From positions 14,845 to 78,844 of the forward strand of contig CAZLZN010000001.1 of the NCBI GenBank assembly GCA_964564035.1: a stretch of DNA of 64,000 bases. Direction: 5' to 3'. Of this stretch, positions 579-62,240 are shown in pieces. A program made the position numbers and the translations under genes. The stretch's first letter is position 1. Each line of letters begins with the position of its first letter. The notes beneath the pieces were generated by a model. That model was not told where the DNA came from. It searched no databases and saw only the letters and a program-made list of their open reading frames with translations. This DNA comes from an uncultured Gammaproteobacteria bacterium (GTDB lineage Bacteria; Patescibacteriota; Microgenomatia; Levybacterales; UBA12049).

Positions 579-2873
579 TTAATCAGATGCAAGCGTGACA
601 GTAACATTTTTAGGCAGGAACGGGAAAATATCCGCTACAAACGGAACACCCGGTTTATAAACTATTGATGTGTGGTCTACTTGCGGAAGCTTGGAAATCG
701 CAGACTTAAACTCTTCTTTGGATTTTCCTCCCAGCTCTTTAGCTAAGCCGGCAGAATCGATTTTTGGCAGAAGTGATCCGCTGATCACGACAGTCGCGGA
801 TACTCTTGCATCACTTATCTTCTCGACATCCTTGATCTCTGCGCTTATGTCCTCCTCCCGGATGTCTTTATCACCGGAATTTTCCTTCTCCAGCATCTTT
901 TTAGCAAAATCATTAAGTCTTTCCTTATCATAAGACAAACCCGTAAATTGCAGACTCGCTTCAACATTTACTTTTTTCGCTTCGTCTCCTTCTTTTTTGT
1001 CATATTTCGCGGTCTGAATTTTTGTACTTAAAAGTACCGGCAACACACTTTCGTCTTTTTGAGTTTTGGCCCCGAGAACACTCTCTGCTTCCTTCTCAAG
1101 ACTCGCTGTTAGACTCGAATTAAGTTTATCCAAATCCTTTTTAGACACAACTGTGATTTTTTTTGAAGACCCGCCTGAAAAGGCCTTATCGTTTTTAGCG
1201 GCAAGAGAGCTATTCCCATCAACGCTGAACTTCATACCCGATGGTAAATTATAATCCGATCCGATCTCCTCTGCGGTCACCTCAACATCAGCAGTACCGG
1301 GTTTTGTACCGGAAAATATATCTCCTGAAGCAGAAGCCACCTTGATATCCTTGTCTGTCACAAAATCCAAGTCTCCGCTTGTTGAAAGAACAGCGCCTTT
1401 TGGCAAATTTACAGACGATGAAGTATTATTGTTATAAACAGTAACAGTGCCGCGGGCTTTTTCTCCGACTTCTTTTTCTCCTGTTGCGTCAACTGTTTCC
1501 TCTCCGCTGATCGTATCTTCGATCTCACTTGCCTTTAGAATATTCTCATCAAAATCGTTCTCGGAGTCTGTCGCAAAAACTATCTCCTCTGTTTTCACTT
1601 TATTTTCCGGAGCAAGCGCTACCACAACCGACGCGCTCATAACATATGTATAAAAATAATAAATTCCCCCTGCTATGACAGCGAGAAGAACCGCGGGTAT
1701 CAAAATAAGCTTGAACCGCCCGATAGAAACCGAAGGCATCTCCGGAAGTCCGCTCCGGATTTTTTCTGTAACAATCTGAACAAAACCTGTCTTATTTCTC
1801 CCGACATCATCACTGTCTTCTGCGCCTAGATCCGGCTCGCTATCATAACTTTCTTGTAAGACTTGCGTTTCTTCTGCTGATTTATGCGCCCTGGTTGATT
1901 GATCATCGGATTCCAAATGCTCATCTTTTATTATTTTTTCTTCAACATCCTGATCTATAACAAAACCGAAATTATCCCCGTGTACGCTCTTATCCATAGA
2001 TACTTCGTCTTTTTGCAATGCACCCAAACTATCCTCCTCGGCAACAGCACTGCTAACAACATGATCATGTTTATCTGTTTCATAATTTTTTATATGATCT
2101 ATTATCCCGCTCGGAACTTCAAAACCCATTTGCTGTGCCGCCCCGAACGAAACAGCCCTGCTGTTAAAATCGGCAGACAGCATACTGATCTGAGGCATAT
2201 GCAAAAAAGGCAAACTCTTACTCCAGTGAAACGCTGCCAGCTTCTGTGCCAGATTCTCACCGTTGTCATTGCCGTACAATACAATTCTGGCCGGAAGTGC
2301 GTCAGCGGTAAACCCCTTCATTAATCCGTCAATTGTATGAGGTATATTTTCTTTTATTTCACCCGTCACGCGCTGGATGCTCTTGCCTCCCCGTAAAAGA
2401 GTTAATGAAACGCTTGTCCTACCTATTTCCGCGAGAATCGCGGACAATGGAGCGCCCTCTTCGCTTTGTATCAAATTAGCAATCGCCTCAGTCATCACCA
2501 TAAACCCAATAGGCGTCAGGCTCAACTTCTCGCATACTTCTTTCAGCTTTTTCAAATATTCTTTCTTGATTTTCTTGCTTTCCTGATCGACCCACTCGTC
2601 AGCTACTCCGAACACCGTTTCTCGAATTTCAACATCCGGCGGCAAAACCTCCTCAAGCGGAGTTATAGCACTGTCAACTGTCTCAATAACATCCTCAAGA
2701 GACAACTCATCAAAGCTACCGCTGAAAAATTTTTCGTCCCTGTTGACGAGCCTTATTTTTTTAACATATTCTTCAAACACGACAGAGCTTACCTTTTCGG
2801 GAGTAATTATCAACCCGAGGTAATAAATAGGAGCTTCTTTTTTCGATTTAAAAAATGGAAACTGCAGCTTCAT
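579..2873 (-). CDS. Large fusion protein. An N-terminal actin-fold, PilM/FtsA-like cytoplasmic domain is followed by a single TM helix and a Ser/Thr/Asp/Lys-rich extracytoplasmic domain. Possible PilM-PilN(-PilO)-type pilus-assembly or FtsA-like anchoring protein.
   Basis: 764-aa ORF. The N-terminal roughly 260 aa (LGLIITPEKVSSVVFEE ... IGRTSVSLTLLRGG ... IVLYGNDNGENLAQKL) is PilM/FtsA-like in pattern. A hydrophobic segment follows (FKLILIPAVLLAVIAGGIYYFYTYV), then a low-complexity extracellular region. Confidence 0.35.
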   Translation of the reverse strand: MKLQFPFFKSKKEAPIYYLGLIITPEKVSSVVFEEYVKKIRLVNRDEKFFSGSFDELSLEDVIETVDSAITPLEEVLPPDVEIRETVFGVADEWVDQESKKIKKEYLKKLKEVCEKLSLTPIGFMVMTEAIANLIQSEEGAPLSAILAEIGRTSVSLTLLRGGKSIQRVTGEIKENIPHTIDGLMKGFTADALPARIVLYGNDNGENLAQKLAAFHWSKSLPFLHMPQISMLSADFNSRAVSFGAAQQMGFEVPSGIIDHIKNYETDKHDHVVSSAVAEEDSLGALQKDEVSMDKSVHGDNFGFVIDQDVEEKIIKDEHLESDDQSTRAHKSAEETQVLQESYDSEPDLGAEDSDDVGRNKTGFVQIVTEKIRSGLPEMPSVSIGRFKLILIPAVLLAVIAGGIYYFYTYVMSASVVVALAPENKVKTEEIVFATDSENDFDENILKASEIEDTISGEETVDATGEKEVGEKARGTVTVYNNNTSSSVNLPKGAVLSTSGDLDFVTDKDIKVASASGDIFSGTKPGTADVEVTAEEIGSDYNLPSGMKFSVDGNSSLAAKNDKAFSGGSSKKITVVSKKDLDKLNSSLTASLEKEAESVLGAKTQKDESVLPVLLSTKIQTAKYDKKEGDEAKKVNVEASLQFTGLSYDKERLNDFAKKMLEKENSGDKDIREEDISAEIKDVEKISDARVSATVVISGSLLPKIDSAGLAKELGGKSKEEFKSAISKLPQVDHTSIVYKPGVPFVADIFPFLPKNVTVTLASD

Positions 2874-6824: not shown

Positions 6825-7505
6825 CTAGGGAATTTTATCAATGCTTCTAATCAACCTTTCATCATCTCTCCCCGGAACATTGACAGCCGTAGATACTCCG
6901 TAAGACACCATTTCCGCGTCAGGATATGGCGATAAAAGCGGAAGTAGTATGTCCGGCTCTGTAGTATCCGGGTTAAGCCACGCGTCCTCAGCGTCCCTCC
7001 GAAGTATCACGGGCATTCTGGGATGAACCTGGCCCACCACCCCGTTTGCCTGTGTGGTAATTATTGTGTAGCTTGTAACCTCGTGTCCGTCTTTCGGATT
7101 CACCCACACATCATATAGCCCCGCGAACGCGAACATCCCTTCATTTTTCAATCTGAAATAATACGGTTGACTCGGTTTCTGTTTTTTATCCCATTCATAA
7201 AAACCCGTAGCCGGCACCAGGCACCTCTGCATTCTGAACGGCTTTCTATATGCAGGTTTATTTTCAATCCCCTCGGCCCTTGCATTGATCGTCTTAAATT
7301 TGAAACTGTCATCCTTGGCCCATGCCGGAATAAGCCCCCAAAACATAAGACCGATCTGATTCGGACTATGCCTGGTGACAACCGGATTCATCTGACCCGG
7401 CGCGATATTATAACGCGGGGACAAATCTTTCAGAGTATTAATCGTTCCAAACCTATCCCGCAACTCCCTCGCTTCCTTTACTACAAGTCCATATCTGCCG
7501 CACAT
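6825..7505 (-). CDS. yedK: SOS-response-associated peptidase (SRAP/YedK/HMCES family); abasic-site DNA-protein crosslinking protein.
   Basis: The protein begins MCGRY... (catalytic Cys2). It carries RYNIAPGQ, FYEW and HPRMPVIL motifs typical of SRAP. It is divergent from lexA. Confidence 0.85.
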   Translation of the reverse strand: MCGRYGLVVKEARELRDRFGTINTLKDLSPRYNIAPGQMNPVVTRHSPNQIGLMFWGLIPAWAKDDSFKFKTINARAEGIENKPAYRKPFRMQRCLVPATGFYEWDKKQKPSQPYYFRLKNEGMFAFAGLYDVWVNPKDGHEVTSYTIITTQANGVVGQVHPRMPVILRRDAEDAWLNPDTTEPDILLPLLSPYPDAEMVSYGVSTAVNVPGRDDERLIRSIDKIP

Positions 7506-7577
7506 AGCAAGAGAATTTTAGATCTTATGTAAAAGAAATAGGTAATAATTTTGCTATACGCACACACCCAAGACACC

Positions 7578-7609
7578 CAAACCCGGTTCGTTTTATGTAG
7601 ACAAACAAG
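7578..7609 (+). repeat. REP-like element copy A (aaacccggttcgttttatgtagacaaacaagg).
   Basis: About 80% identical to the two REP copies flanking the RAYT gene at 10032-10064 and 10769-10800. It contains the GTTTnnnnnnnnnCAAAC hairpin core and sits in the SRAP/lexA divergent intergenic region. Confidence 0.7.
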
Positions 7610-7678
7610 GTGATTTTCAAATAAAGGGCTGATATTAAATTTTAAATATTAAAATTTGGTAATAAATTAAAAATCCCC

Positions 7679-7713
7679 TTGACAGGAAACGATCGTTTCC
7701 TATATATTATACT
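7679..7713 (+). promoter_or_regulatory. lexA promoter with embedded operator: -35 TTGACA (7679-7684), perfect 16-bp palindrome GGAAACGATCGTTTCC (7685-7700) filling the spacer, and a -10 TATATA/TATTAT (7701-7710).
   Basis: Read directly. The palindrome GAAAC-GATC-GTTTC resembles the Gram-positive Cheo/LexA box (GAAC-N4-GTTC). The ATG of lexA lies only about 5-10 nt past the -10, so the mRNA is likely leaderless. Confidence 0.6.
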
Positions 7714-7715
7714 CA

Positions 7716-8284
7716 TGACTATTGATGAAGCAGCCAAAAGAATAAAAAAATTTTATCTGCTCAACAGACGGATGCCGTCATACAAAGAGCTATGCATTGA
7801 GCTGGATCTCTCCTCCAAAAAAAACAGTTTCAAATGGGCAAAAAAACTTATAGAGACGGGCCTGCTTGGGAAAGACAAACAGGGTAAACTCTTTCCCAAG
7901 TCCCTGTTCGCGATTCCCGATTTCGGCATCATCAAGGCGGGATATGCTGCGCCGGCGCACCAGACAGAAAATAATAGCCTGGATTTATATAAATTTATAC
8001 TCGATCTTCCGAATGGAGTTTTCTCTTTAACTATACACGGAGACTCAATGATCGACGCGTCGATCCGGGAAGGAGACATCGCTCTTATTGATCCGAACAA
8101 ACAGCCTCTCCACGGAGATATCGTCGCCGCTTTGGTGGATGGCGAGTGTACTCTCAAATATTTTTACAAAGATCACCGGGGCGTACGCCTTGTACCCGGC
8201 AATCCCGAATATCCCATTATCTATCCGCAAAACGAACTCGTCGTACAGGGAGTATTAATCCATTTAATAAGGAAGTTCAGATGA
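7716..8284 (+). CDS. lexA: LexA repressor (wHTH plus S24 peptidase).
   Basis: Ala-Gly cleavage site (IIKAG-YAAP), GDSM catalytic Ser and a downstream Lys (TLKYF). The ATG at 7716 is preferred over the TTG at 7679, which would read through the promoter. Confidence 0.85.
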
Positions 8285-8412
8285 GGATATTATGTGCTTC
8301 TTTTTGAAATTTAAAAATATTAATTTAATATGTTAAATCAAAACTCAAAAACCATAGGAACAAGCGTCTTAACCATAAAAGGCAAAATGGATCTTTAAGC
8401 CTTGATCTAGGT

Positions 8413-8440
8413 TTTGATCTTTGAGATTTGATTTTTGATC
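8413..8440. repeat. Heptamer tandem repeat (TTTGATC)-like x4: TTTGATC TTTGAGA TTTGATT TTTGATC.
   Basis: Read directly; intergenic, upstream of the small-ORF/polymerase operon. The same unit recurs at 15042-15062. Confidence 0.65.
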
Positions 8441-8526
8441 TAATTTAGCTTGACACGCCTGTTCGTCATCTCGCTCATACTAAATGATGTAAATTAATTT
8501 TCTTAGATAAGCTCTGAAGGGGAGGT

Positions 8527-8787
8527 ATGTTAGAAAAAATACATGAAAAAATTGATGTCATTACTATTTACAAGAAATATCCGGCACGGGTCATTCCATA
8601 TAAAATCAGATGGAACGGTAGAGATCATATTATTACGAAAATCGGGTATCATCACAAAATTCGTAAAGGCCATACGTTCTTTCATATCTTTTCTGTCTGC
8701 TCCGATACCTTAGCGTTCCGCCTTCGCTTTGACACAGAAACTATGTACTGGACGCTGGAGGAAGTATCAGATGGATTTACCGATTAG
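8527..8787 (+). CDS. Small hypothetical protein (86 aa) immediately upstream of, and overlapping, the Y-family polymerase gene; possible accessory subunit.
   Basis: ORF with the purine-rich AAGGGGAGG just upstream of the ATG. The 3' end overlaps the polymerase start by 17 nt. No recognised family. Confidence 0.4.
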   Translation: MLEKIHEKIDVITIYKKYPARVIPYKIRWNGRDHIITKIGYHHKIRKGHTFFHIFSVCSDTLAFRLRFDTETMYWTLEEVSDGFTD

Positions 8788-10015
8788 CAAAAATAAACCC
8801 CAAATTATGCATATTGATCTCGATTCTTGCTTCGCAACAATCGAACAACAGGCAAATCCACTCCTCCGGGGGAAGCCCATCGTTGTCGCCGCACACAATG
8901 CTCCCAATGGATGCATTCTGGCATCGTCTATTGAGGCTAAAAGGATGGGAATAAAAACCGGAATGAGAATTAAAGAGTCGCGCTTAATCTATCCCTATAT
9001 AATAATCCGCACGCCTGACCCGGCAAAGTATCGTGACGTTCATGTCAAATTCAAAAAAATTTTTTCGGATTATTCAAACAAGGTTATTCCTAAGTCAATT
9101 GATGAAGCGATAATAGATCTACATGATATAGAACGACTTAACCTTGACTTGGTTAAAATCGGCCGGGAAATAAAACAGCGAATGAAGACGGAAATAGGAG
9201 AATGGATAAGCTGCAGTATAGGAATCTCTACAAATCGATTTCTCGCTAAGCTTGCCGCAACTATCCATAAGCCGGACGGCCTCGATGTTATAACACACAA
9301 AAATCTGGTTGATATCTACAGCAGGATAGAACTTCTGGACCTACACGGAATCAATGTGCGGTACCAGGCGAGACTCAACGCATACGGAATATTCACGCCG
9401 ATGGATTTCCTGCGGGCAGCCTGTGAAACTCTCGAAAAAAAAGTTTTCTTAAGCATCTGCGGCCGGCAGTGGTATGAAAGAATACGTGGATACGAGACTG
9501 ATGACATCGAATTCAAGACCAAAAGCATCGGTCAACAATACGCGCTAAAAAAGCCGACGGCAAATCCTGCGGAACTCGGCCCCATGATGATGAAACTATG
9601 TGAAAAAATGGGAAGAAGACTGCGTCACAAAGGCTATACCGCGCATGGCATCCACGTGAGAATTAATTATAAAGACGGGACGACTTGGCATAGAGGTCGC
9701 ATGACGAATAGTGAGCTGTACACTACAATGGAACTATATAAAGTGGCGCTTCTTATTTTTAACCAGCAACCGGAAATTAAGCAAGCCACACTTCTTGCAG
9801 TAAGCTGTTACAAGCTGGAAGCAAACGTAAAATCCCAAATGTCTTTATTTGACGCTGATCACACAAAACATAGAAAAATGTCTGATGCTATGGATGAGAT
9901 AAATGACCGCTGGGGAGAATTTACCGTAACACCAGGCCTAATGCTCGGGACAGAGAATATTATTCCTGACAGCATTGCCTTCGGTCGCGTTAAAGAACTT
10001 GAAAACTTAGAATAA
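8771..10015 (+). CDS. dinB: Y-family translesion DNA polymerase (DinB/Pol IV-like).
   Basis: MHIDLDSCFATIEQ... matches the Y-family N-terminal DxD motif, and SIDEAIIDL supplies the catalytic D/E. A strong SD (GGAGGAA) sits 7 nt before the ATG at 8771, with an alternative ATG at 8807. Confidence 0.85.
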   Translation: MDLPISKNKPQIMHIDLDSCFATIEQQANPLLRGKPIVVAAHNAPNGCILASSIEAKRMGIKTGMRIKESRLIYPYIIIRTPDPAKYRDVHVKFKKIFSDYSNKVIPKSIDEAIIDLHDIERLNLDLVKIGREIKQRMKTEIGEWISCSIGISTNRFLAKLAATIHKPDGLDVITHKNLVDIYSRIELLDLHGINVRYQARLNAYGIFTPMDFLRAACETLEKKVFLSICGRQWYERIRGYETDDIEFKTKSIGQQYALKKPTANPAELGPMMMKLCEKMGRRLRHKGYTAHGIHVRINYKDGTTWHRGRMTNSELYTTMELYKVALLIFNQQPEIKQATLLAVSCYKLEANVKSQMSLFDADHTKHRKMSDAMDEINDRWGEFTVTPGLMLGTENIIPDSIAFGRVKELENLE

Positions 10016-10031
10016 TTTTTCCACAAATGCA

Positions 10032-10064
10032 CGAACCTGGTTTGTTTTATATTGACAAACAAGG
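10032..10064 (+). repeat. REP-like element copy B (left flank of the RAYT).
   Basis: cgaacctggtttgttttatattgacaaacaagg; an inverted partner lies at 10769-10800. Confidence 0.7.
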
Positions 10065-10096
10065 ACAGAGTGCGTAATACTAAATTATCGCTTAGT

Positions 10097-10768
10097 ATGC
10101 CATATAGAAAAATTCCACTTGTAAAAAATGAAATTTATCATATCTTCAACCGAAGCATTGCAAGACAGCCTATTTTTAAAACACAAATAGATCACAAACG
10201 AATTCTTGAGATTATAAACTTTTATAGACATGATACCAGACCCCTACGATTTTCACATTTTAAAAGGTTACCAATTGACCAAAAAAAAGATATCTTAGAG
10301 GAATATGCAAAGAATCAAAAATATCTCGTAGAAATATATGCATACTGCGTAATGCCAAATCATTTCCACTTCTTATTAAAAGCAACTCAAGACTCCGGAA
10401 TTTCAATTTTCATGAGAAACCTGCAACATAGTTATTCTAATTATTTTAATATAAAAAACAACAGGACAGGATCATTATTTCAGTCCATGTTTAAAGCAAT
10501 CAGAATAGAAACTGACGAGCAGCTTTTCCATGTTTCAAGATATATTCATTTAAATCCGGCAACTTCATTTATCATACCTATTGAAGCTCTTGAAACATAT
10601 CAATGGTCTTCATTTAAAGATTTTATAAACAAAGCAACTGAAAGCATGATCAATAAGCAGTATATTTATGAGAATTTTAAAAGCGTAGGAGAATACAAAA
10701 AGTTTGTGTATGATCAAGCTGATTATCAGCGCGAGTTAGATAAAATAAAGCACCTTATCTTCAAATAA
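10097..10768 (+). CDS. REP-associated tyrosine transposase (RAYT; IS200/IS605-like HUH Y1 transposase).
   Basis: HUH motif YCVMPNHFHFLL and catalytic Tyr motif RYIHLNP. Flanked by inverted REP copies, one of which abuts the stop codon. The ATG at 10097 is preferred over the TTG at 10052, which lies inside REP B. Confidence 0.75.
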   Translation: MPYRKIPLVKNEIYHIFNRSIARQPIFKTQIDHKRILEIINFYRHDTRPLRFSHFKRLPIDQKKDILEEYAKNQKYLVEIYAYCVMPNHFHFLLKATQDSGISIFMRNLQHSYSNYFNIKNNRTGSLFQSMFKAIRIETDEQLFHVSRYIHLNPATSFIIPIEALETYQWSSFKDFINKATESMINKQYIYENFKSVGEYKKFVYDQADYQRELDKIKHLIFK

Positions 10769-10800
10769 CCTTGTTTGTCTACCTAAATCAAACCGGGTTC
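10769..10800 (-). repeat. REP-like element copy C (right flank of the RAYT, inverted orientation).
   Basis: ccttgtttgtctacctaaatcaaaccgggttc is the reverse complement of the copy A/B consensus. It contains the GTTTG-N11-CAAAC hairpin. Confidence 0.7.
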
Positions 10801-10875
10801 AGTTAACATATTAACATCGCAATACAACGAGACCTCTTGACCTTGCCCGCTGAATTATTTTATATTTAAATAAGA

Positions 10876-11088
10876 ATGAAAAAAGAAACAATACTCTGGC
10901 AAATAATTGTAGTTATCCTCGGTCTACTCCTGATATTGACTCTAAACTATTATCTGCAGGAAAATAACAAAATAAAAGCCCTCTCGGAAACGGCAAAATG
11001 CATATCCGATATGAAAAACGCGTTTCCCGATGGAAGCAGATCCGATGTATGCGAAGACATCCTGAACTTCAAAAATAAATCCCTCTAA
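10876..11088 (+). CDS. Small hypothetical membrane-anchored or secreted protein (70 aa).
   Basis: N-terminal TM/signal-like segment ILWQIIVVILGLLLILTL. Confidence 0.35.
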   Translation: MKKETILWQIIVVILGLLLILTLNYYLQENNKIKALSETAKCISDMKNAFPDGSRSDVCEDILNFKNKSL

Positions 11089-11100
11089 ACCAGATCTTAA

Positions 11101-11409
11101 TCAACTCACTCGCCACAAAGACTTACTCAGATCTACTTTATCGCCCTCAAAAAAAACACCCTCTTCCTCTAGCATTTTTTTCTTGGAGCTTATACCGTCA
11201 CCGGCCGAATACCCGGTAAGCTTTCCGTCGGACGCGACTACCCTGTGACACGGAGTATTCGGAATATCGGGATTATTCCTCATACACATCCCGACAGCGC
11301 GGGCCGCCCGCGGACTTCCGGCGAGCACCGCGATCTGCCCGTAAGTTGCAACCTTACCCCTGGGAATTTTTCTAACCTCTTCATACACTCTAAATCCAAA
11401 CTTTCTCAT
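11101..11409 (-). CDS. ogt: Methylated-DNA-protein-cysteine methyltransferase, a short form with the DNA-binding/active-site domain only.
   Basis: Active-site motif PCHRVV and the upstream YGQIA...G motif. Confidence 0.8.
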   Translation of the reverse strand: MRKFGFRVYEEVRKIPRGKVATYGQIAVLAGSPRAARAVGMCMRNNPDIPNTPCHRVVASDGKLTGYSAGDGISSKKKMLEEEGVFFEGDKVDLSKSLWRVS

Positions 11410-11417
11410 ACTTCCCC

Positions 11418-11438
11418 TTAATACTTAATACTTAATAC
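11418..11438. repeat. Heptamer tandem repeat (TTAATAC)x3.
   Basis: Read directly; lies between the MGMT start and the dnaJ stop. The same unit recurs at 56942-56955. Confidence 0.7.
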
Positions 11439-11442
11439 TATC

Positions 11443-12318
11443 TTAAAACCATCCCTTTTTCCCCTGCAATTCTTCCTTCCTGAATTCCTCCAAAAGCTCT
11501 TTTTGTTTCTTATTCAGTTTTTTCGGAACACTGACTTTGATTCTCACATAATGATTCCCGCGCCCACTGCCGCGAAGATGCGGCATGCCCCGGCCGTTAA
11601 GGCGTATCAATATTCCGGGCTGTGTCCCCTCCGGAATTTTTATTTTTAGAGGACCGTCAATCGTCTCAACTTCAACCTCATCTCCCAGCGCGGCCTGAGC
11701 GATCGAAACTTCTTTCTCTGAAATGATCTCCGACCCTTCTCTTTCAAATCTCGGATCGGACGCTACATCGAGCACTATATCATATTTCTCAAATCTGATT
11801 CTCGAACCGCTGTCAACGCCAGCCGGTATTTTTATTTTCTGCTTCTCTCCGTTTACTACCACTTCTTTTTCAGTGCCTTTCGCCGCTTCCATAAAAGTAA
11901 TTCTGGCCGAATAAACAGGCCTTCTCTGCCGGCCGCCAAACGGACTGCCGCCGCCGAAAAATTGCTCAAAAATCTCAAAAGGATCGGAATAGCCTCCGAA
12001 ATTAAAATCAAAACCGCCTCCATTATTGGAATAAGTGTAATTAAAAGGCCCGTATTGTCCGCCCTGACCTCCATAAGGATTTTGTCCCGCGCCCTGTTCA
12101 TACGCCGAATGTCCGACCTGATCATACATCTTCCTTTTTTCATCATTCGCCAATACTTCGTAAGCTTTAGTTACCTCTTTGAACTTCGCCTCAGCATCCT
12201 TGGATTTATTTCTATCAGGATGATATTCCAAAGCAAGCTTACGGTAAGCCTTCTTGATCTCATCAAGACTCGCTGTTTTATTGACCCCCAATATTGAATA
12301 ATAATCTCCGCTCGCCAT
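11443..12318 (-). CDS. dnaJ: DnaJ-class co-chaperone without a Zn-finger (CbpA-type).
   Basis: J domain (YYSILGV...HPDRN) and a G/F-rich region, but no CxxCxGxG repeats. Confidence 0.85.
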
Positions 12319-12406
12319 ATTACTACCTGTTATTTACCAAAAAAGCGCCTTACTGCGCTCAATTATTTCAAATTTCTAATTTATAATTTGAAATTAATTT
12401 TCAATG

Positions 12407-12427
12407 TTTTAAATTTTAAATTTTAAA
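12407..12427. repeat. Heptamer tandem repeat (TTTTAAA)x3.
   Basis: Read directly, in the dnaK-dnaJ spacer. Confidence 0.7.
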
Positions 12428-12439
12428 CATTTATGTTTG

Positions 12440-12474
12440 ATTGAAAATTGAAAATTGAAAATTTCAAATTGAAA
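12440..12474. repeat. Heptamer tandem repeat (ATTGAAA)x3, followed by ATTTCAA and ATTGAAA.
   Basis: Read directly, in the dnaK-dnaJ spacer, ending 1 nt before the dnaK stop. Confidence 0.75.
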
Positions 12475-12475
12475 A

Positions 12476-14398
12476 CTATTCTACCACTTCTCCCTCAACC
12501 GGCTCATCTTTGTCTTTTTTCTTTTTATCTTCTTTTTTCTCGCCCTCAGCATTCTCAGCCTGACCCTCGGCGCCTTGATCCTGAGCCTGATCTCCGGTTG
12601 CGCCGGCTGCACTGTACATGCTCTGACCAATCTTTTGCAGATGATCCGAAAGTTCCTGAGTTTTTGCCTTAATATCTTCTTTGGAACCGCTATCGAGTAT
12701 ATCTTTTAGCGCCTTTACCTTTTCCTCAACTTCTTTCCTCAGATCCTCGCTGATCTTGTCTTTATCTTCACGTAATGCCTTCTCTGCTGTAAATATCAAA
12801 GCATCTGCCTGATTCCTGACTTCAACTTTTTCTTTCTTTTCTTCATCTTCTTTCGCGTGCAATTCAGCCTCTTTGGTCATTTTCTCAACTTCTTCTTTCG
12901 ATAAACCTGTCGATCCGGTTATTTTGATGCTTTGCGCTTTGCCTGTTGCCTTATCTTTCGCGGTAACATTCAGAAGTCCGTTCGCGTCAATATCAAAAGT
13001 AACCTCAATCTGCGGTACGCCTCTCGGCGCCGGCGGAATTCCGTCCAAAATAAATCTCCCCAGTGATTTATTATCGTTCGCCATCGGCCGCTCTCCCTGT
13101 AAAATATTTATTTCTACCTGCGTCTGATTATCGCCTGCTGTAGAAAATACCTGCGATTTTGAAGTAGGAATAGTTGTATTTCTTGTAATAAGCGGCGTAG
13201 ATACTGCCCCCATCGTCTCAATACCCAGAGTCAGTGGCGTAACGTCAAGAAGCAATACGTCCTTAACTTCTCCGCCGAGAACTCCGGCCTGCACGGCCGC
13301 GCCGACTGCGACTACTTCATCCGGATTGACCGATCTATTGGCTTCTTTCCCGAAAAACCGCGTTACAACCTCAACCACTTTAGGCATCCTCGTCATACCT
13401 CCGACCAAAATTACTTCGTTTATATCTTTCTCAGTCATTCCGGCATCTTTTAGAGCCTTCTTGACCGGCTCAAGCGTTTTTTCAACTAATTCACCGACAA
13501 CCATCTCAAGCTTTGATCGTGTCAAAGTCATTGTCAGATGCAGCGGTCCGTCTTTGCCTTGAGTTATAAACGGCTGATTTATTTGCGCTTCCTGACTGCT
13601 GGACAGCTCTATCTTTGCCTTCTCCGCCGACTCTTTCAGCCTCTGAAGGGCTTGCGAATCTTTGCGTAGATCAATACTGTTTTCTTTCTGGAACTCCTCG
13701 GCTATATATTCTATTATTTTCTGATCAAAATCGTCTCCACCGAGATGCGTATCGCCATTCGTGGATTTGACGTGGTATACGCCTTCTCCAAGCTCAAGAA
13801 TTGAGATATCAAAGGTTCCGCCTCCCAAATCATAAACCGCAATCGTGTGTGTATTTTTCTTATCGAGCCCGTATGCCAAAGCTGCAGCTGTCGGTTCATT
13901 AATAATACGAAGTACCTCAAGTCCGGCTATCTCACCGGCCTGTTTGGTAGCCTGTCTCTGACTGTCATCAAAATACGCCGGAACCGTAATGACCGCCTGT
14001 GTTACTTTACTTCCCAAATACGCTTCGGCATCTGCCTTAATTTTCTGAAGAATCATCGCGGAAACTTCCTGCGGAGTAAATGTTTTACCCTCAACCTCAA
14101 CGACTGCCATATCATCACGACCTGCCTTGACTGTATATGGAAGCCATTTTGTATCAAACTGGACAGACTTATCATGGAACTTCTTTCCCATGAGTCTCTT
14201 AATTGAAAAGATTGTCCTCTTTGGCTTAAGCACCATTTGCCTCTTCGCGACGTCTCCGACCACGTGCGAGATTGGATCGACTACAGACGGTATAACATTG
14301 CGTCCTTCTGCGGAATGGATCACTTTTGGCGATCCGCCCTCCATTACAGCGACACACGAATTTGTTGTTCCTAAATCAATTCCTATTATTTTTCCCAT
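12476..14398 (-). CDS. dnaK: Chaperone DnaK (Hsp70).
   Basis: [18 protein letters not shown]..., DLGGGTFD and the full Hsp70 architecture. Confidence 0.95.
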
Positions 14399-56960: not shown

Positions 56961-58265
56961 ATGCACAGCGCCGATATAACAATCGAAAATATAACCAAAA
57001 TAGAAGGTAACGCCAGCTTGAAAGTAACGATCGAAAACGATTCTGTAAAACAACTTCAGTTTATAATCTCGGACTACCGCCGCTTCTACACAACAGCAGT
57101 CAAAGGCAAACCATTCATGACAGTCCCTTCATTCCTGTCCAGAATCTGCGGCACCTGCTCGGTAGCGCATTTATTTGCCTCAATAAAAGCTATAGAGCGG
57201 TCTCAGGGCATCGAAGTCTCCGAACAGACCAAGCTTCTCCGCGCCTTAGCGTATGACGGCCTTATGATCCGCGATCATGCACTGCATTTATACTTCTTCG
57301 TTTTACCCGATATTCTCGGAATTGATTCAATCCTCGACATTCCGGACGATGACAACAATCCCGGCCATATTCTTCTTCACGATTCCTTTGACATAAAACG
57401 CCTTGGCACAGATATCACAAACGTGATTATAGGAGCCGCGATCCACGCGCCCTTCCCGACGATCGGAGGATTCCTCAAAAACCCCGATCCATCCAAATTC
57501 CCCGAACTGATCCAAAGACTTGAAGCCATCCGGCCGCAGGTACTTCGCGGCATTAAAACCTTCTATGACTGGAACGCGTCATTGATTCGCAATTCCAACT
57601 ACTTAGGGCTTCGCAGTGAAAAAAAATTCGACTTTCTGGAAGGCGACGTATTCAATTCCAACGGCAGACTTATCGCGCAAAATGATTTCAAGAATTATCT
57701 CAGGTACGTCCAAATTCCCTATTCACAAGCTGAGGGTTATGAATTCTCCGACACACAAAAAGACTACCTTGCCGGCTCATTAGCGAGAATAAACCTCAAT
57801 AAAGACCTCCTTCACGAACGTACCAAAAAAGATGCAGCCGAGTATATCGCGGCTTTCCCCTCTAACAATATCTATCACAATAATCTCGCACAGGCAATAG
57901 AAATACTTCACTGCGTAGATGAAGCAATAGATATCTTGAAAACGATCCAAATATCACCCGATGAAAAACCCGTTCGCAAACCTCCTCAGGCAGGCGTTGG
58001 CGTCGGACTTGTCGAAGCTCCAAGAGGCATACTATATCATATGGCCAAAGTAAACGACAAAGGACTGATCGAAGACTACGACGTGATCGTACCTACAGCC
58101 CAAAACCAAATTCAAATAGAAAACGATCTCAAAGAATATTTCAACAGAAATTTAAATAAACCGGAAGAAGAACTCAGACTGGATGCTGAGAAAATTATCA
58201 GAGCCTACGACCCCTGCATGTCCTGCGCCACCAATTTCCTCAAAATCGACTGGATACGCAAATAA
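56961..58265 (+). CDS. [NiFe]-hydrogenase large subunit (group 3 type).
   Basis: L1 RICGTCSVAH and L2 DPCMSCATN motifs; 434 aa. Confidence 0.85.
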   Translation: MHSADITIENITKIEGNASLKVTIENDSVKQLQFIISDYRRFYTTAVKGKPFMTVPSFLSRICGTCSVAHLFASIKAIERSQGIEVSEQTKLLRALAYDGLMIRDHALHLYFFVLPDILGIDSILDIPDDDNNPGHILLHDSFDIKRLGTDITNVIIGAAIHAPFPTIGGFLKNPDPSKFPELIQRLEAIRPQVLRGIKTFYDWNASLIRNSNYLGLRSEKKFDFLEGDVFNSNGRLIAQNDFKNYLRYVQIPYSQAEGYEFSDTQKDYLAGSLARINLNKDLLHERTKKDAAEYIAAFPSNNIYHNNLAQAIEILHCVDEAIDILKTIQISPDEKPVRKPPQAGVGVGLVEAPRGILYHMAKVNDKGLIEDYDVIVPTAQNQIQIENDLKEYFNRNLNKPEEELRLDAEKIIRAYDPCMSCATNFLKIDWIRK

Positions 58266-61049: not shown

Positions 61050-61140
61050 TTCCCAACTATTTCTCTTTAAGTATACAGAACATACATCTACAAAATCAAT
61101 ACAGCTATTGACATAAATTTTTATTTAATATAAAGTTATT

Positions 61141-61286
61141 ACTAATCAAGAGTGATGGGGAGAGAATTGGCTCAACGATCCATCCGGCAACCCCGCTAAG
61201 CGGGGTGCCAAACCCAAACCCGTGAGGGAAGGATTAGCTCCGATTATTTCGGGGAAACATCTTACCCCGCTCGGCGGGGTTTTTTT
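61141..61286 (+). promoter_or_regulatory. SAM-I (S-box) riboswitch with an intrinsic terminator.
   Basis: cTAATCAAGAG...GGGGAGAG...GGCAACC...GGTGCCAAACCC...GGATTAG matches SAM-I conserved blocks (AUCAAGAG, GGCAACC, GGUGCUAAAUCC, P1 closure). A terminator CCCCGC-tcg-GCGGGG plus U7 ends 1 nt before the metF ATG. A TTGACA -35 lies at 61108. Confidence 0.8.
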
Positions 61287-62240
61287 ATGGACAAATCAAA
61301 TTCATTATCTTTTAAAATAAGAAACAAGCGCCCATGCGTCTTGTTTGAACTGGTTCCTCCGCCGGCAGAATACAAAAAAAACATAATCAATGAGTCTCTC
61401 GCGTCTCTCACCCAAATTTTGACCCGCACATCAGTCGACGGCATAAATATTCCGGAAGTAATTGATGAACATCGAAACGGTGAGAGGGTGAATAAAATTC
61501 CCGACAAGCTCGAGCCTCGAATATTAGCAAAGTATCTGCACGGCCTGGGCTTAGACAATATAATAATTAACCGGCCCGTAGTTTATTCCCCCTGGGATCT
61601 TCAAATGAAATGGCTCAAAGAAACATATTCCAAATTCAAAATTAAAAACTTTGTTCTGGTAGGCGGCGAATCATCCGGCACCGAATATCCCGGATATTCG
61701 GTAAACAAAACAGCGCTGGAAATTTCCGTGTCCCAAAAAGATCTCTTTCCTGACATTCTTCTTGGCGGCATTACGATACCGGGTAGAAAAAATGAAGCTG
61801 ACAGATTATATAAAAAAACACAAAACGGAATTAACTTTTTCACGACGCAAATAATTTATGATTCAAGATCCATAACAAAACTGCTCGCCGCTTACTGGAA
61901 AATATGCATTGCAAAAAAAGAAAAACCCAAAATGATATTTCTCAGCTTCGCGCCTGTAATCACAAAAAAAGACATTGAGCTTCTGCTATGGTTGGGAGTT
62001 AAAATTCCGCAATCCACTTTGAAACAGCTGAAAAATGGCTGGCTCGGCGTCGGACACAGATCAACCAAAATCTGCATAGATATTCTAAAAGATATCTTTT
62101 CGTTTATAAAAAAATATGATATAAGTATACCTGTCGGCCTGAATATAGGTTATGTCAACAGAAATAACTTTGAATTTTCACTTGAATTTCTGGATAAATT
62201 AAGTCAGGTCTATCTGAAAGAAATAAAAAATAATAAATAA
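61287..62240 (+). CDS. metF: Methylenetetrahydrofolate reductase-like protein.
   Basis: MTHFR-family pattern (VLFELVPPP...). It is under a SAM riboswitch and upstream of metE. Confidence 0.65.
   Translation: MDKSNSLSFKIRNKRPCVLFELVPPPAEYKKNIINESLASLTQILTRTSVDGINIPEVIDEHRNGERVNKIPDKLEPRILAKYLHGLGLDNIIINRPVVYSPWDLQMKWLKETYSKFKIKNFVLVGGESSGTEYPGYSVNKTALEISVSQKDLFPDILLGGITIPGRKNEADRLYKKTQNGINFFTTQIIYDSRSITKLLAAYWKICIAKKEKPKMIFLSFAPVITKKDIELLLWLGVKIPQSTLKQLKNGWLGVGHRSTKICIDILKDIFSFIKKYDISIPVGLNIGYVNRNNFEFSLEFLDKLSQVYLKEIKNNK

Follow-up and report, generated by a model that had tools for sequence, protein, structure and literature searches.

A candidate SOS-type translesion-synthesis operon pairing an ImuB-C-like small protein with a DinB-like polymerase in the Microgenomates

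Organization of the locus

Here we describe a 4.6-kb region within a 64-kb stretch of contig CAZLZN010000001.1 (64,000 nt, hereafter the window, to which all window counts refer) from an uncultured bacterium of the Microgenomates, a branch of the Candidate Phyla Radiation (CPR). The region contains an SRAP gene that diverges from lexA, the lexA gene itself, an 86-aa open reading frame (ORF) that overlaps the gene for a DinB-like Y-family polymerase, a REP-associated tyrosine transposase (RAYT) accompanied by copies of a REP-like repeat, and a small MGMT gene (Table 1). The gene calls are backed by Pfam and NCBIfam domains, with the exception of the 86-aa ORF, for which there are none, and the neighbourhood of the region is made up of ordinary chromosomal genes (tRNA synthetases, a release factor, cell-envelope enzymes and dnaK-dnaJ). 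A preliminary description of this DNA counted six DNA-damage and repair functions within the 4.6 kb; all six genes are found where it placed them, but the RAYT is the DNA-processing enzyme of a repeat element and does not serve damage repair. As developed below, the segment between positions 7679 and 10015 is probably an SOS-type translesion-synthesis operon composed of lexA, a small ImuB-C-like ß-barrel protein and the DinB-like Y-family polymerase.

The small ORF and the polymerase form one unit

The polymerase sequences HIDLDSCFA and SIDEA align with HVDMDAFFA and SIDEA of a Pol IV of solved structure (7yll), and with the DLD/DxD and SIDEA motifs thus retained the enzyme is predicted to be catalytically intact, as had been proposed. 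Its C-terminal tail holds a clamp-type QMSLF motif, followed by MSDAMDEINDRWGEFTV and by a DxIAFG end, and the corresponding motifs (Q(L/M)SLF and a terminal DRIAFGG) are conserved across the family. The N-terminal, RecA-NT-like part of DUF4113 (positions 2–22) was matched by 9 of 18 tails with a best E-value of 0.001, all of them below the gathering score; the tail of the window polymerase gave an E-value of 0.051, also below the gathering score, with the motif visibly conserved. The ATG at 8771, which is preceded by GGAGG, is the likely start of the gene. The overlap with the small ORF noted earlier is real, but its length depends on this choice: the ATG gives 17 nt, whereas the mechanically called ORF, beginning at a TTG, gives 59 nt.

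Using the close alignment of the small-protein family (A1), we collected 55 related loci from species-representative genomes, all of which belong to CPR Microgenomates (Levy-, Roizman-, Gottesman-, Woese-, Davies-, Shapiro- and Collierbacteria). Conservation of the small ORF beside the polymerase had been set beforehand as the observation by which the pairing would be judged, and it was kept: tblastn places the polymerase downstream of the small ORF in 53 of the 55 loci (directly so in 52; in the other, L030, a 356-aa ORF lies between the two genes), and the remaining two are a contig end and a locus without the polymerase (L010). The junction overlaps in 37 of 52 cases, the length being in nearly every one the same 17 nt as in the window. 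Such an overlap implies translational coupling. The divergence of the small protein and of the polymerase from their window counterparts co-varies (r 0.80, n 50). Because the small ORF is conserved beside the polymerase, overlaps it and diverges in step with it, the two constitute one unit. lexA lies upstream in about 14 of the 55 loci.

Some of the relatives show additions around the pair. Two carry roughly 0.9–1.1 kb of inserted DNA between the small ORF and the polymerase (L030:10296-11366 and L032:10259-11162); the 356-aa ORF of the L030 insert contains an HELEH (HExxH) motif and has no Pfam match. A single lineage (L001:5612-5869, L002:479-736 and L003:824-1081) has an 85-aa GIY-YIG nuclease-domain gene directly upstream of the pair, and lexA is not adjacent there.

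The small protein is homologous to a LexA-adjacent protein of Geobacter

Searches with the 86-aa protein returned no Pfam, NCBIfam or significant PHROG match, no PDB sequence match and, for its AlphaFold2 (AF2) model, no PDB fold match. Its 42 close clusters are all about 85 aa long, the sole named one coming from Levybacteria, while an exhaustive profile search yielded 757 representatives at 50% identity (E-values up to 0.001), the best 150 of which are all standalone proteins of 64–123 aa. A word-indexed homologue search with a wider alignment (A2) found matches within the CPR family only, none of them annotated. Large as it is, the family escapes Pfam, NCBIfam and PHROGs, and its members therefore go under 'hypothetical protein' in every annotation. 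The AF2 model is all-ß, with seven strands and a predicted local distance difference test score (pLDDT) of 91.6. W75 is invariant in A1 and at least 90% conserved in A2, W29 behaves alike, and R32 is near-invariant in A1. DUF6504 (PF20114) is the most frequent Pfam match among family members, with sub-threshold matches in 6 of 24 and 5 of 52 of them (best E-value 4e-4).

Several other identities were considered and rejected. A leader peptide is ruled out by protein-level conservation down to 37% identity together with the confident fold; membership of the YolD (PF08863) or UmuD (PF00717) families found no match in 24 members, even at E-values up to 5, nor in the window protein; and an EF-P KOW-like domain reached E-values of 0.02–0.1 in five members only.

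A tblastn search of plasmids with a family member identified a locus on a Geobacter anodireducens plasmid (L159, E-value 9e-7). hhalign of A2 against the 84-aa protein encoded there (L159:3501-3752) gave a probability of 98.2% and an E-value of 5e-14 over 81 columns, BLASTP between the CPR family and the same protein gave an E-value of 3e-10, and the two share the C-terminal end WTLE(E/A)V.DG. The gene order is also shared: a canonical LexA is followed after 4 nt by the 84-aa gene and then by a Y-family polymerase that starts 4 nt before the stop of the small gene. The Geobacter protein likewise has no Pfam match, DUF6504 included, so that the lack of such a match is uninformative on novelty. 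The small ORF had been described as lacking a recognisable family, which is correct for Pfam, NCBIfam and PHROGs but overlooks this homology. It had further been suggested to be a new polymerase accessory factor; an accessory factor is indeed the best reading, because the ORF is conserved as a partner of the polymerase and coupled to it in translation, but the family is not new, as the profile comparison joins it to a Geobacter protein at the position whose small proteins have already been described as standalone ImuB-C. In L159 the polymerase is frameshifted into ORFs of 288 and 128 aa (L159:3752-4980) and is missing from the gene table of the plasmid.

The standalone ImuB-C type was delineated by Aravind 2013 (PMC3765255), who defined the ImuB-C superfamily from small GSU0042-like Geobacter proteins together with the C-terminus of ImuB, described it as ß-rich with a conserved C-terminal tryptophan, found GSU0042-like proteins to match ImuB with E-values of about 1e-4 to 1e-5 only, and noted that standalone ImuB-C is most often combined with DinB, often along with LexA and SRAP. 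Timinskas & Venclovas 2019 (PMC6511836) also described the linkage of standalone ImuB-C to DinB, LexA and SRAP, and reported that an active PolY is coupled with it and that such polymerases bear a RecA-NT-like motif. As that article cites Jara 2003, the lexA-imuB-C-polY genes of G. sulfurreducens are damage-induced and form one transcription unit.

The comparison with ImuB itself used five ImuB proteins taken from plasmid imuA-imuB-dnaE2 cassettes, which were reached from E. coli DnaE by way of DnaE2 and its neighbours. A tblastn search of plasmids with the window polymerase, tried as a route to ImuB, returned UmuC and DinB only, and two candidate sources were discarded, H60 as a fragment and H63 as not being an ImuB locus. 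DUF6504 maps to the ImuB C-terminus (residues ~420–503) in three of the five proteins at 19–31 bits, and database entries name DUF6504 fragments 'protein ImuB' or 'DUF6504 family protein'. hhalign of the CPR family against the five proteobacterial ImuB-C regions was not significant; against 125 ImuB C-termini the score was 20.4 (P 0.006, probability 6.5%), with 77 columns aligned collinearly from end to end, and this score exceeded those of 400 out of 400 shuffles (200 by column and 200 by block). The AF2 model of ImuB-C shows the strand order of the 86-aa model plus one helical insertion. PF20114 misses two of the five genuine ImuB C-termini (checked including L065 and L067) as well as the standalone Geobacter protein, which implies that standalone ImuB-C-like proteins are systematically unannotated.

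LexA and its putative operator

The S24 protein encoded upstream of the small ORF carries a KAG sequence (the Ala-Gly site), a GDSM serine and a TLK lysine that align with the catalytic positions in UmuD and LexA structures. It aligns over its full length with the Geobacter LexA (E-value 3e-25), its residues 10–64 falling on the LexA_DNA_bind (winged-helix) region of that protein. Its S24 domain is marginally closer to UmuD than to LexA, both by NCBIfam models (82.6 vs 77.3 bits) and in the PDB search (E-values of 3e-16 for UmuD and 1e-12 for LexA).

The promoter at lexA is the best match in the region (11/12), and between its -35 and -10 hexamers lies a perfect 16-bp palindrome, GGAAACGATCGTTTCC. 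The proposed search for this palindrome, run on the 64-kb window, found a single copy, the one in the lexA promoter. Palindromes of LexA type are found in 23 of the closer related loci, also between -35 and -10, and belong to the class GAAC/AAAC/GTAC-N4-GTTC/GTTT/GTAC (AAC/TAC-N4-GTT/GTA core), the background of which is 0.013 per 100 nt. They lie upstream of lexA where this gene is adjacent and otherwise immediately precede the small ORF, and the presence of the same class of box before the small ORF in loci where lexA is not adjacent implies a LexA that acts in trans. The gene had been called autoregulated; the palindromic operator in its own promoter and the motif class in 23 relatives uphold this, with the binding of LexA to the site predicted from the motif. 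The -10 hexamer ends 6 nt ahead of the lexA ATG and there is no Shine-Dalgarno sequence (window 7703-7717); because of this spacing the lexA mRNA is suggested to be leaderless. Relatives show the same -10-to-ATG geometry upstream of the small ORF.

Another set of 23 loci, more distant ones (within L030–L060), has, between -35 and -10, a direct repeat of the form TTCG-N7-8-TTCGG in place of the palindrome. It precedes the start of the small ORF by some 12–15 nt (at most 30 nt), for example in L031, L035, L039 and L047, has a background of 0.007 per 80 nt, and is mutually exclusive with the palindrome class; lexA is not adjacent in these loci. The repeat could reflect a switch of LexA motif or another regulator within the Microgenomates.

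No terminator-like site was detected in the spacer between lexA and the small ORF. The length of this spacer varies among relatives, from 9–23 nt (L010, L014, L021 and L032) up to 381 nt (L018). In the window it contains a run of short GATCT-containing repeats (8385-8445; gatctttaagccttgatctaggttttgatctttgagatttgatttttgatct) that is missing from the relatives with 9–23-nt spacers. A spacer of about 190 nt in L006 and L007 is spanned by a long-range inverted repeat, CCCGTCTCGCTA ... TAGCGAGACGG, which could be a large transcript stem or a small inserted element.

Table 1 Features of the region, with positions in the window
Feature	Position	Strand	Basis or detail
SRAP	6825-7505	-	PF02586, 243 bits, full length
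REP-a, decayed solo copy	7580-7630	+	Inverted repeat I1
lexA promoter and putative operator	7679-7708	+	-35 TTGACA 7679-7684, GGAAACGATCGTTTCC 7685-7700, -10 TATATT 7703-7708
LexA, 189 aa from ATG 7715 (alternative start 7679)	7715-8284	+	PF00717, 84.6 bits
Spacer between lexA and small ORF, 242 nt	8285-8526	+	GATCT-rich short repeats
86-aa ORF, ImuB-C-like candidate small subunit	8527-8787	+	All-ß AF2 model, homology to Geobacter protein
DinB-like Y-family polymerase, 414 aa from ATG 8771 (mechanical TTG ORF from 8729)	8771-10015	+	IMS and IMS_C
REP-b, left hairpin of RAYT	10033-10064	+	Repeat search, folding
RAYT, Y1/HUH (alternative start 10052)	10097-10768	+	PF01797, 42.4 bits
REP-c, right hairpin of RAYT, inverted relative to REP-b	10769-10800	-	Inverted repeat I2
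70-aa ORF, N-terminal hydrophobic segment	10876-11088	+	ORF call only
MGMT, 102 aa	11101-11409	-	PF01035, 108 bits

The RAYT and its repeats

Exactly three copies of the REP-like element are present in the 64 kb (7585-7610, +; 10039-10064, +; 10769-10794, -), where none is expected by chance; the three copies lie at the positions reported earlier and all within 3.2 kb of the RAYT gene. Two inverted repeats relate them: I1, in which 51 nt at REP-a are 82% complementary to 10749-10799, and I2, which joins REP-b and REP-c over 32 nt at 84%. REP-b and REP-c fold into hairpins (-5.9 kcal/mol, z -3.6, and -4.7 kcal/mol, z -2.1, respectively). REP-a has lost its hairpin (-0.3 kcal/mol, z +1.66) and includes, in antisense, some 20 nt from the 3' end of the RAYT, and for these reasons it is a decayed remnant of the right end of the same element. 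The RAYT is well above the cut-off of PF01797 (42.4 bits against 23), contains NHFHF and RYIHLNP and is flanked on both sides by the inverted hairpin REPs, which upholds the identity first given to it; it scores 52 bits with the NCBIfam model REP_Tyr_transpos, below the cut-off of 80. About 18 of 19 RAYT homologues in metagenomes have an inverted hairpin pair of their own, far above the null, and the window RAYT with its two REPs is an ordinary RAYT unit. The REP consensus had no matches in the JGI metagenome collection, and no dispersed REP population was seen within the 64-kb window beyond the three local copies.

The RAYT is present in every same-species contig and absent from all 55 related loci as well as from the next-closest relative (L078). 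MGMT adjoins the 3' end of the polymerase directly in four of the 55 (L015, L016, L022 and L027); in the window the two are separated by an insertion of about 1.1 kb that also holds the 70-aa ORF, for which we found no Pfam or NCBIfam match and weak PHROG matches only. Given that the RAYT is missing from the relatives and that MGMT abuts the polymerase in four of them, the RAYT unit and the 70-aa ORF were inserted late into a pre-existing polymerase-MGMT junction, and MGMT is an ancestral neighbour in this lineage.

Interpretation of the locus

In the mechanism that we propose, the binding of LexA, the transcription of the genes as one unit over the 242-nt spacer and every protein–protein contact are predictions from the sequence. 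LexA would repress its own promoter via the palindrome between -35 and -10, and DNA damage would lead to RecA-stimulated self-cleavage of LexA at Ala-Gly and hence to derepression. The small protein and the polymerase would then be made together through coupling at the 17-nt overlap and, probably, read-through from the lexA promoter. The polymerase would attach to the sliding clamp via QMSLF, bind RecA via its RecA-NT-like motif and bind the small ß-barrel, probably via the C-terminal DxIAFG tail, giving a small Pol V-like complex that would copy past lesions; the divergently encoded SRAP protein on the left would shield abasic sites in single-stranded DNA.

A number of observations weigh against this assignment. 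On the side of regulation, Pfam LexA_DNA_bind is not matched by the window S24 protein (HTH_27 alone appears, at an E-value of 0.03), and the exact window palindrome, GAAAC-N4-GTTTC, is absent from all relatives, with which the motif class alone is shared. The 242-nt gap between lexA and the small ORF holds TTGACA at 8450, which could belong to an internal promoter, and lacks a second LexA-like box, so that SOS control of the polymerase would rest on read-through. A scan of ten larger ORFs of the 64 kb, picked by RecA-like size or by context, revealed no RecA. As to the small protein, the Geobacter reference is a plasmid-borne G. anodireducens protein and not GSU0042, and it is through genus, size and gene order that the two are equated; none of the DUF6504 matches reaches the gathering score; the hhalign probability to ImuB C-termini is just 4–6.5%; and the fold comparison has no solved structure to draw on, the two models having different neighbours among PDB folds. 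Finally, we know of no experimental demonstration of a role, or of polymerase binding, for any standalone ImuB-C protein.

The points concerning the small protein would also fit a genuinely new accessory family, an analogue of UmuD' or YolD unrelated to ImuB-C, whose shared ancestry would be limited to a small Geobacter/CPR clade that the literature lumped with ImuB-C on weak evidence. The missing Pfam, NCBIfam and PDB sequence matches, the Geobacter homologue without a DUF6504 match, the low hhalign probability, the E-values of about 1e-4 to 1e-5 in PMC3765255 and the differing fold neighbours all speak for such a family. We nevertheless regard it as unlikely: the alignment with ImuB-C is collinear from end to end and beats every shuffle, DUF6504 is the most frequent Pfam match, strand order, size and the C-terminal tryptophan are the same, and the operon partners (LexA, SRAP and a polymerase with the RecA-NT motif) coincide; even if it were true, family and operon would already have been described under the ImuB-C name. 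A role for the S24 protein as a UmuD-like or UmuDAb-like polymerase manager, distinct from the LexA of the cell, bearing an added DNA-binding domain and donating its cleaved C-terminal part to the polymerase while the 86-aa protein does something else, such as damage sensing, would account for the slightly higher similarity of the S24 domain to UmuD and for the undetected LexA_DNA_bind domain. It is a distinctly improbable reading, since the protein aligns with a canonical Geobacter LexA over its full length, winged-helix region included, since the palindromic operator sits inside its own promoter as for an autoregulated LexA, and since the same box before small ORFs without an adjacent lexA implies a LexA acting in trans.

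The preliminary description had also raised the possibility that the lexA-polymerase segment was assembled or moved by REP/RAYT activity as a REP-bounded cargo. REP-a and REP-b do stand in direct orientation around lexA, the small ORF and the polymerase, all three copies cluster here (ubiquity of the repeat, which would have made the flanking uninformative, was not what we found), and the piece of RAYT 3' end within REP-a shows that some rearrangement took place. The idea fails on synteny instead, and we consider it barely credible. The same gene order is present in dozens of Microgenomates loci without a RAYT or such REPs, and L078 has the core without the RAYT; MGMT abuts the polymerase in four relatives at the very site now occupied by the RAYT; the hairpin of REP-a is lost, and RAYT homologues carry their own two hairpins rather than cargo; and no step in GC content marks the lexA-polymerase block, the drop to 30–33% being confined to the RAYT segment.

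We therefore return to the operon of lexA, an ImuB-C-like protein and a DinB-like polymerase. The neighbourhood of SRAP, LexA, ImuB-C and DinB is already published, and what the window contributes is a divergent form of it from the CPR. A RAYT-built repair island is unsupported and no new kind of system is revealed; what is gained is that translesion cassettes of the lexA-imuB-C-polY type now extend to the Microgenomates within the CPR. The constant overlap of 17 nt, the joint divergence of the two proteins and the conservation of the polymerase tail offer handles on the function of standalone ImuB-C. More speculatively, and with the balance of our judgement tilting towards doubt, in ultra-small CPR genomes without ImuA and DnaE2 a minimal RecA-dependent mutasome might consist of an active DinB-like polymerase with the divergent ImuB-C-like barrel as its sole small subunit, and the control of the operon might have been rewired within the Microgenomates from the palindrome to TTCG-N7-8-TTCGG, through a switch of LexA motif or capture by a different regulator.

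Comparison with known systems

The closest counterpart is Geobacter's lexA-imuB-C-polY operon, which has the same order of lexA, a gene for a protein of about 85 aa and an overlapping Y-family polymerase, homologous small proteins, an active-type polymerase with QLxLF and a RecA-NT-like motif, SRAP as a frequent neighbour, and no imuA or dnaE2 nearby. It differs in host (Desulfuromonadia, as opposed to the CPR/Microgenomates host of the window) and the identity is limited to about 29%; the Geobacter LexA box is GGTT-N10-AACC (PMC8565304), whereas that of the window is of the GAAC-N4-GTTC class; and the window has a 242-nt spacer and a LexA N-terminal domain that Pfam misses. With the ImuA-ImuB-DnaE2 mutasome the window system shares the size, strand order and C-terminal tryptophan of ImuB-C, a profile similarity that is weak but non-random, a link to the SOS response and an SRAP gene that is often alongside. 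In the window, however, the domain is a separate protein, its Y-family partner is predicted to be catalytically intact, and the system has neither ImuA nor DnaE2, the two proteins that ImuB-C binds in the mutasome (PMC12926913).

Pol V (UmuD'2C-RecA) and the Bacillus YqjW/UvrX-YolD systems resemble the window in combining a LexA-controlled Y-family polymerase with a co-encoded, small all-ß subunit, and in the RecA-NT-like motif followed by a conserved C-terminal tail on the polymerase. The small subunit of the window, in contrast, belongs neither to the S24 peptidases nor to the YolD proteins, and its gene precedes that of the polymerase with a fixed 17-nt overlap; the ImuB-C barrel is also not the SH3-like barrel of UmuD'/YqjX (PMC12926913). 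The RAYT unit recalls proteobacterial REPtrons in having one HUH/Tyr Y1 gene between two inverted hairpin repeats of about 32 nt, but differs from them in that the repeats number three in 64 kb, with no dispersed population seen, and the NCBIfam RAYT model spans 146 positions as compared with about 223–238 aa for the window RAYT.

Flanking genes and other observations

The SRAP protein begins with MCGRY, as previously noted, contains GFYEW and HPRMPVIL and matches solved SRAP/YedK/HMCES structures in a PDB search. L013, L018, L021 and L045 likewise have a divergent SRAP gene upstream of the module; the association of SRAP, LexA and polymerase pointed out earlier is thus real, and SRAP is a recurrent neighbour of lexA-small ORF-polymerase operons. 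SRAP genes also stand beside imuA-imuB-dnaE2 cassettes on Rhizobium and Burkholderia plasmids (L063:6766-8105 and L065:367-1278), with two in tandem in L063.

The MGMT protein was correctly described as minimal: it is a single domain lacking the N-terminal domain, and its PCHRV motif is kept and aligns with PCHRV of the M. tuberculosis OGT. The gene is convergent with the polymerase and starts 33 nt past the dnaJ stop (11443), and what links it to the module is its position rather than common transcription. dnaK, dnaJ and MGMT share one orientation (window 11101-14398, -), with gaps of 157 and 33 nt, and MGMT is probably transcribed with dnaK-dnaJ; it may be the last gene of this chaperone operon, an unusual pairing. 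In the next-closest relative a MazE/PIN toxin-antitoxin pair (L078:9564-10234) follows the polymerase, in the place of the RAYT and MGMT.

Elsewhere in the window, a 764-aa protein with a weak Baseplate_J match is encoded at 579-2873 (-), beside a sortase gene and upstream of alanyl-tRNA synthetase (compare L070:1323-4347). An ORF at 56961-58265 (+) matches the NiFe-hydrogenase large subunit (PF00374, 98 bits), and a SAM riboswitch (RF00162, 55 bits) lies at 61140-61239 (+), upstream of an ORF at 61287-62240.

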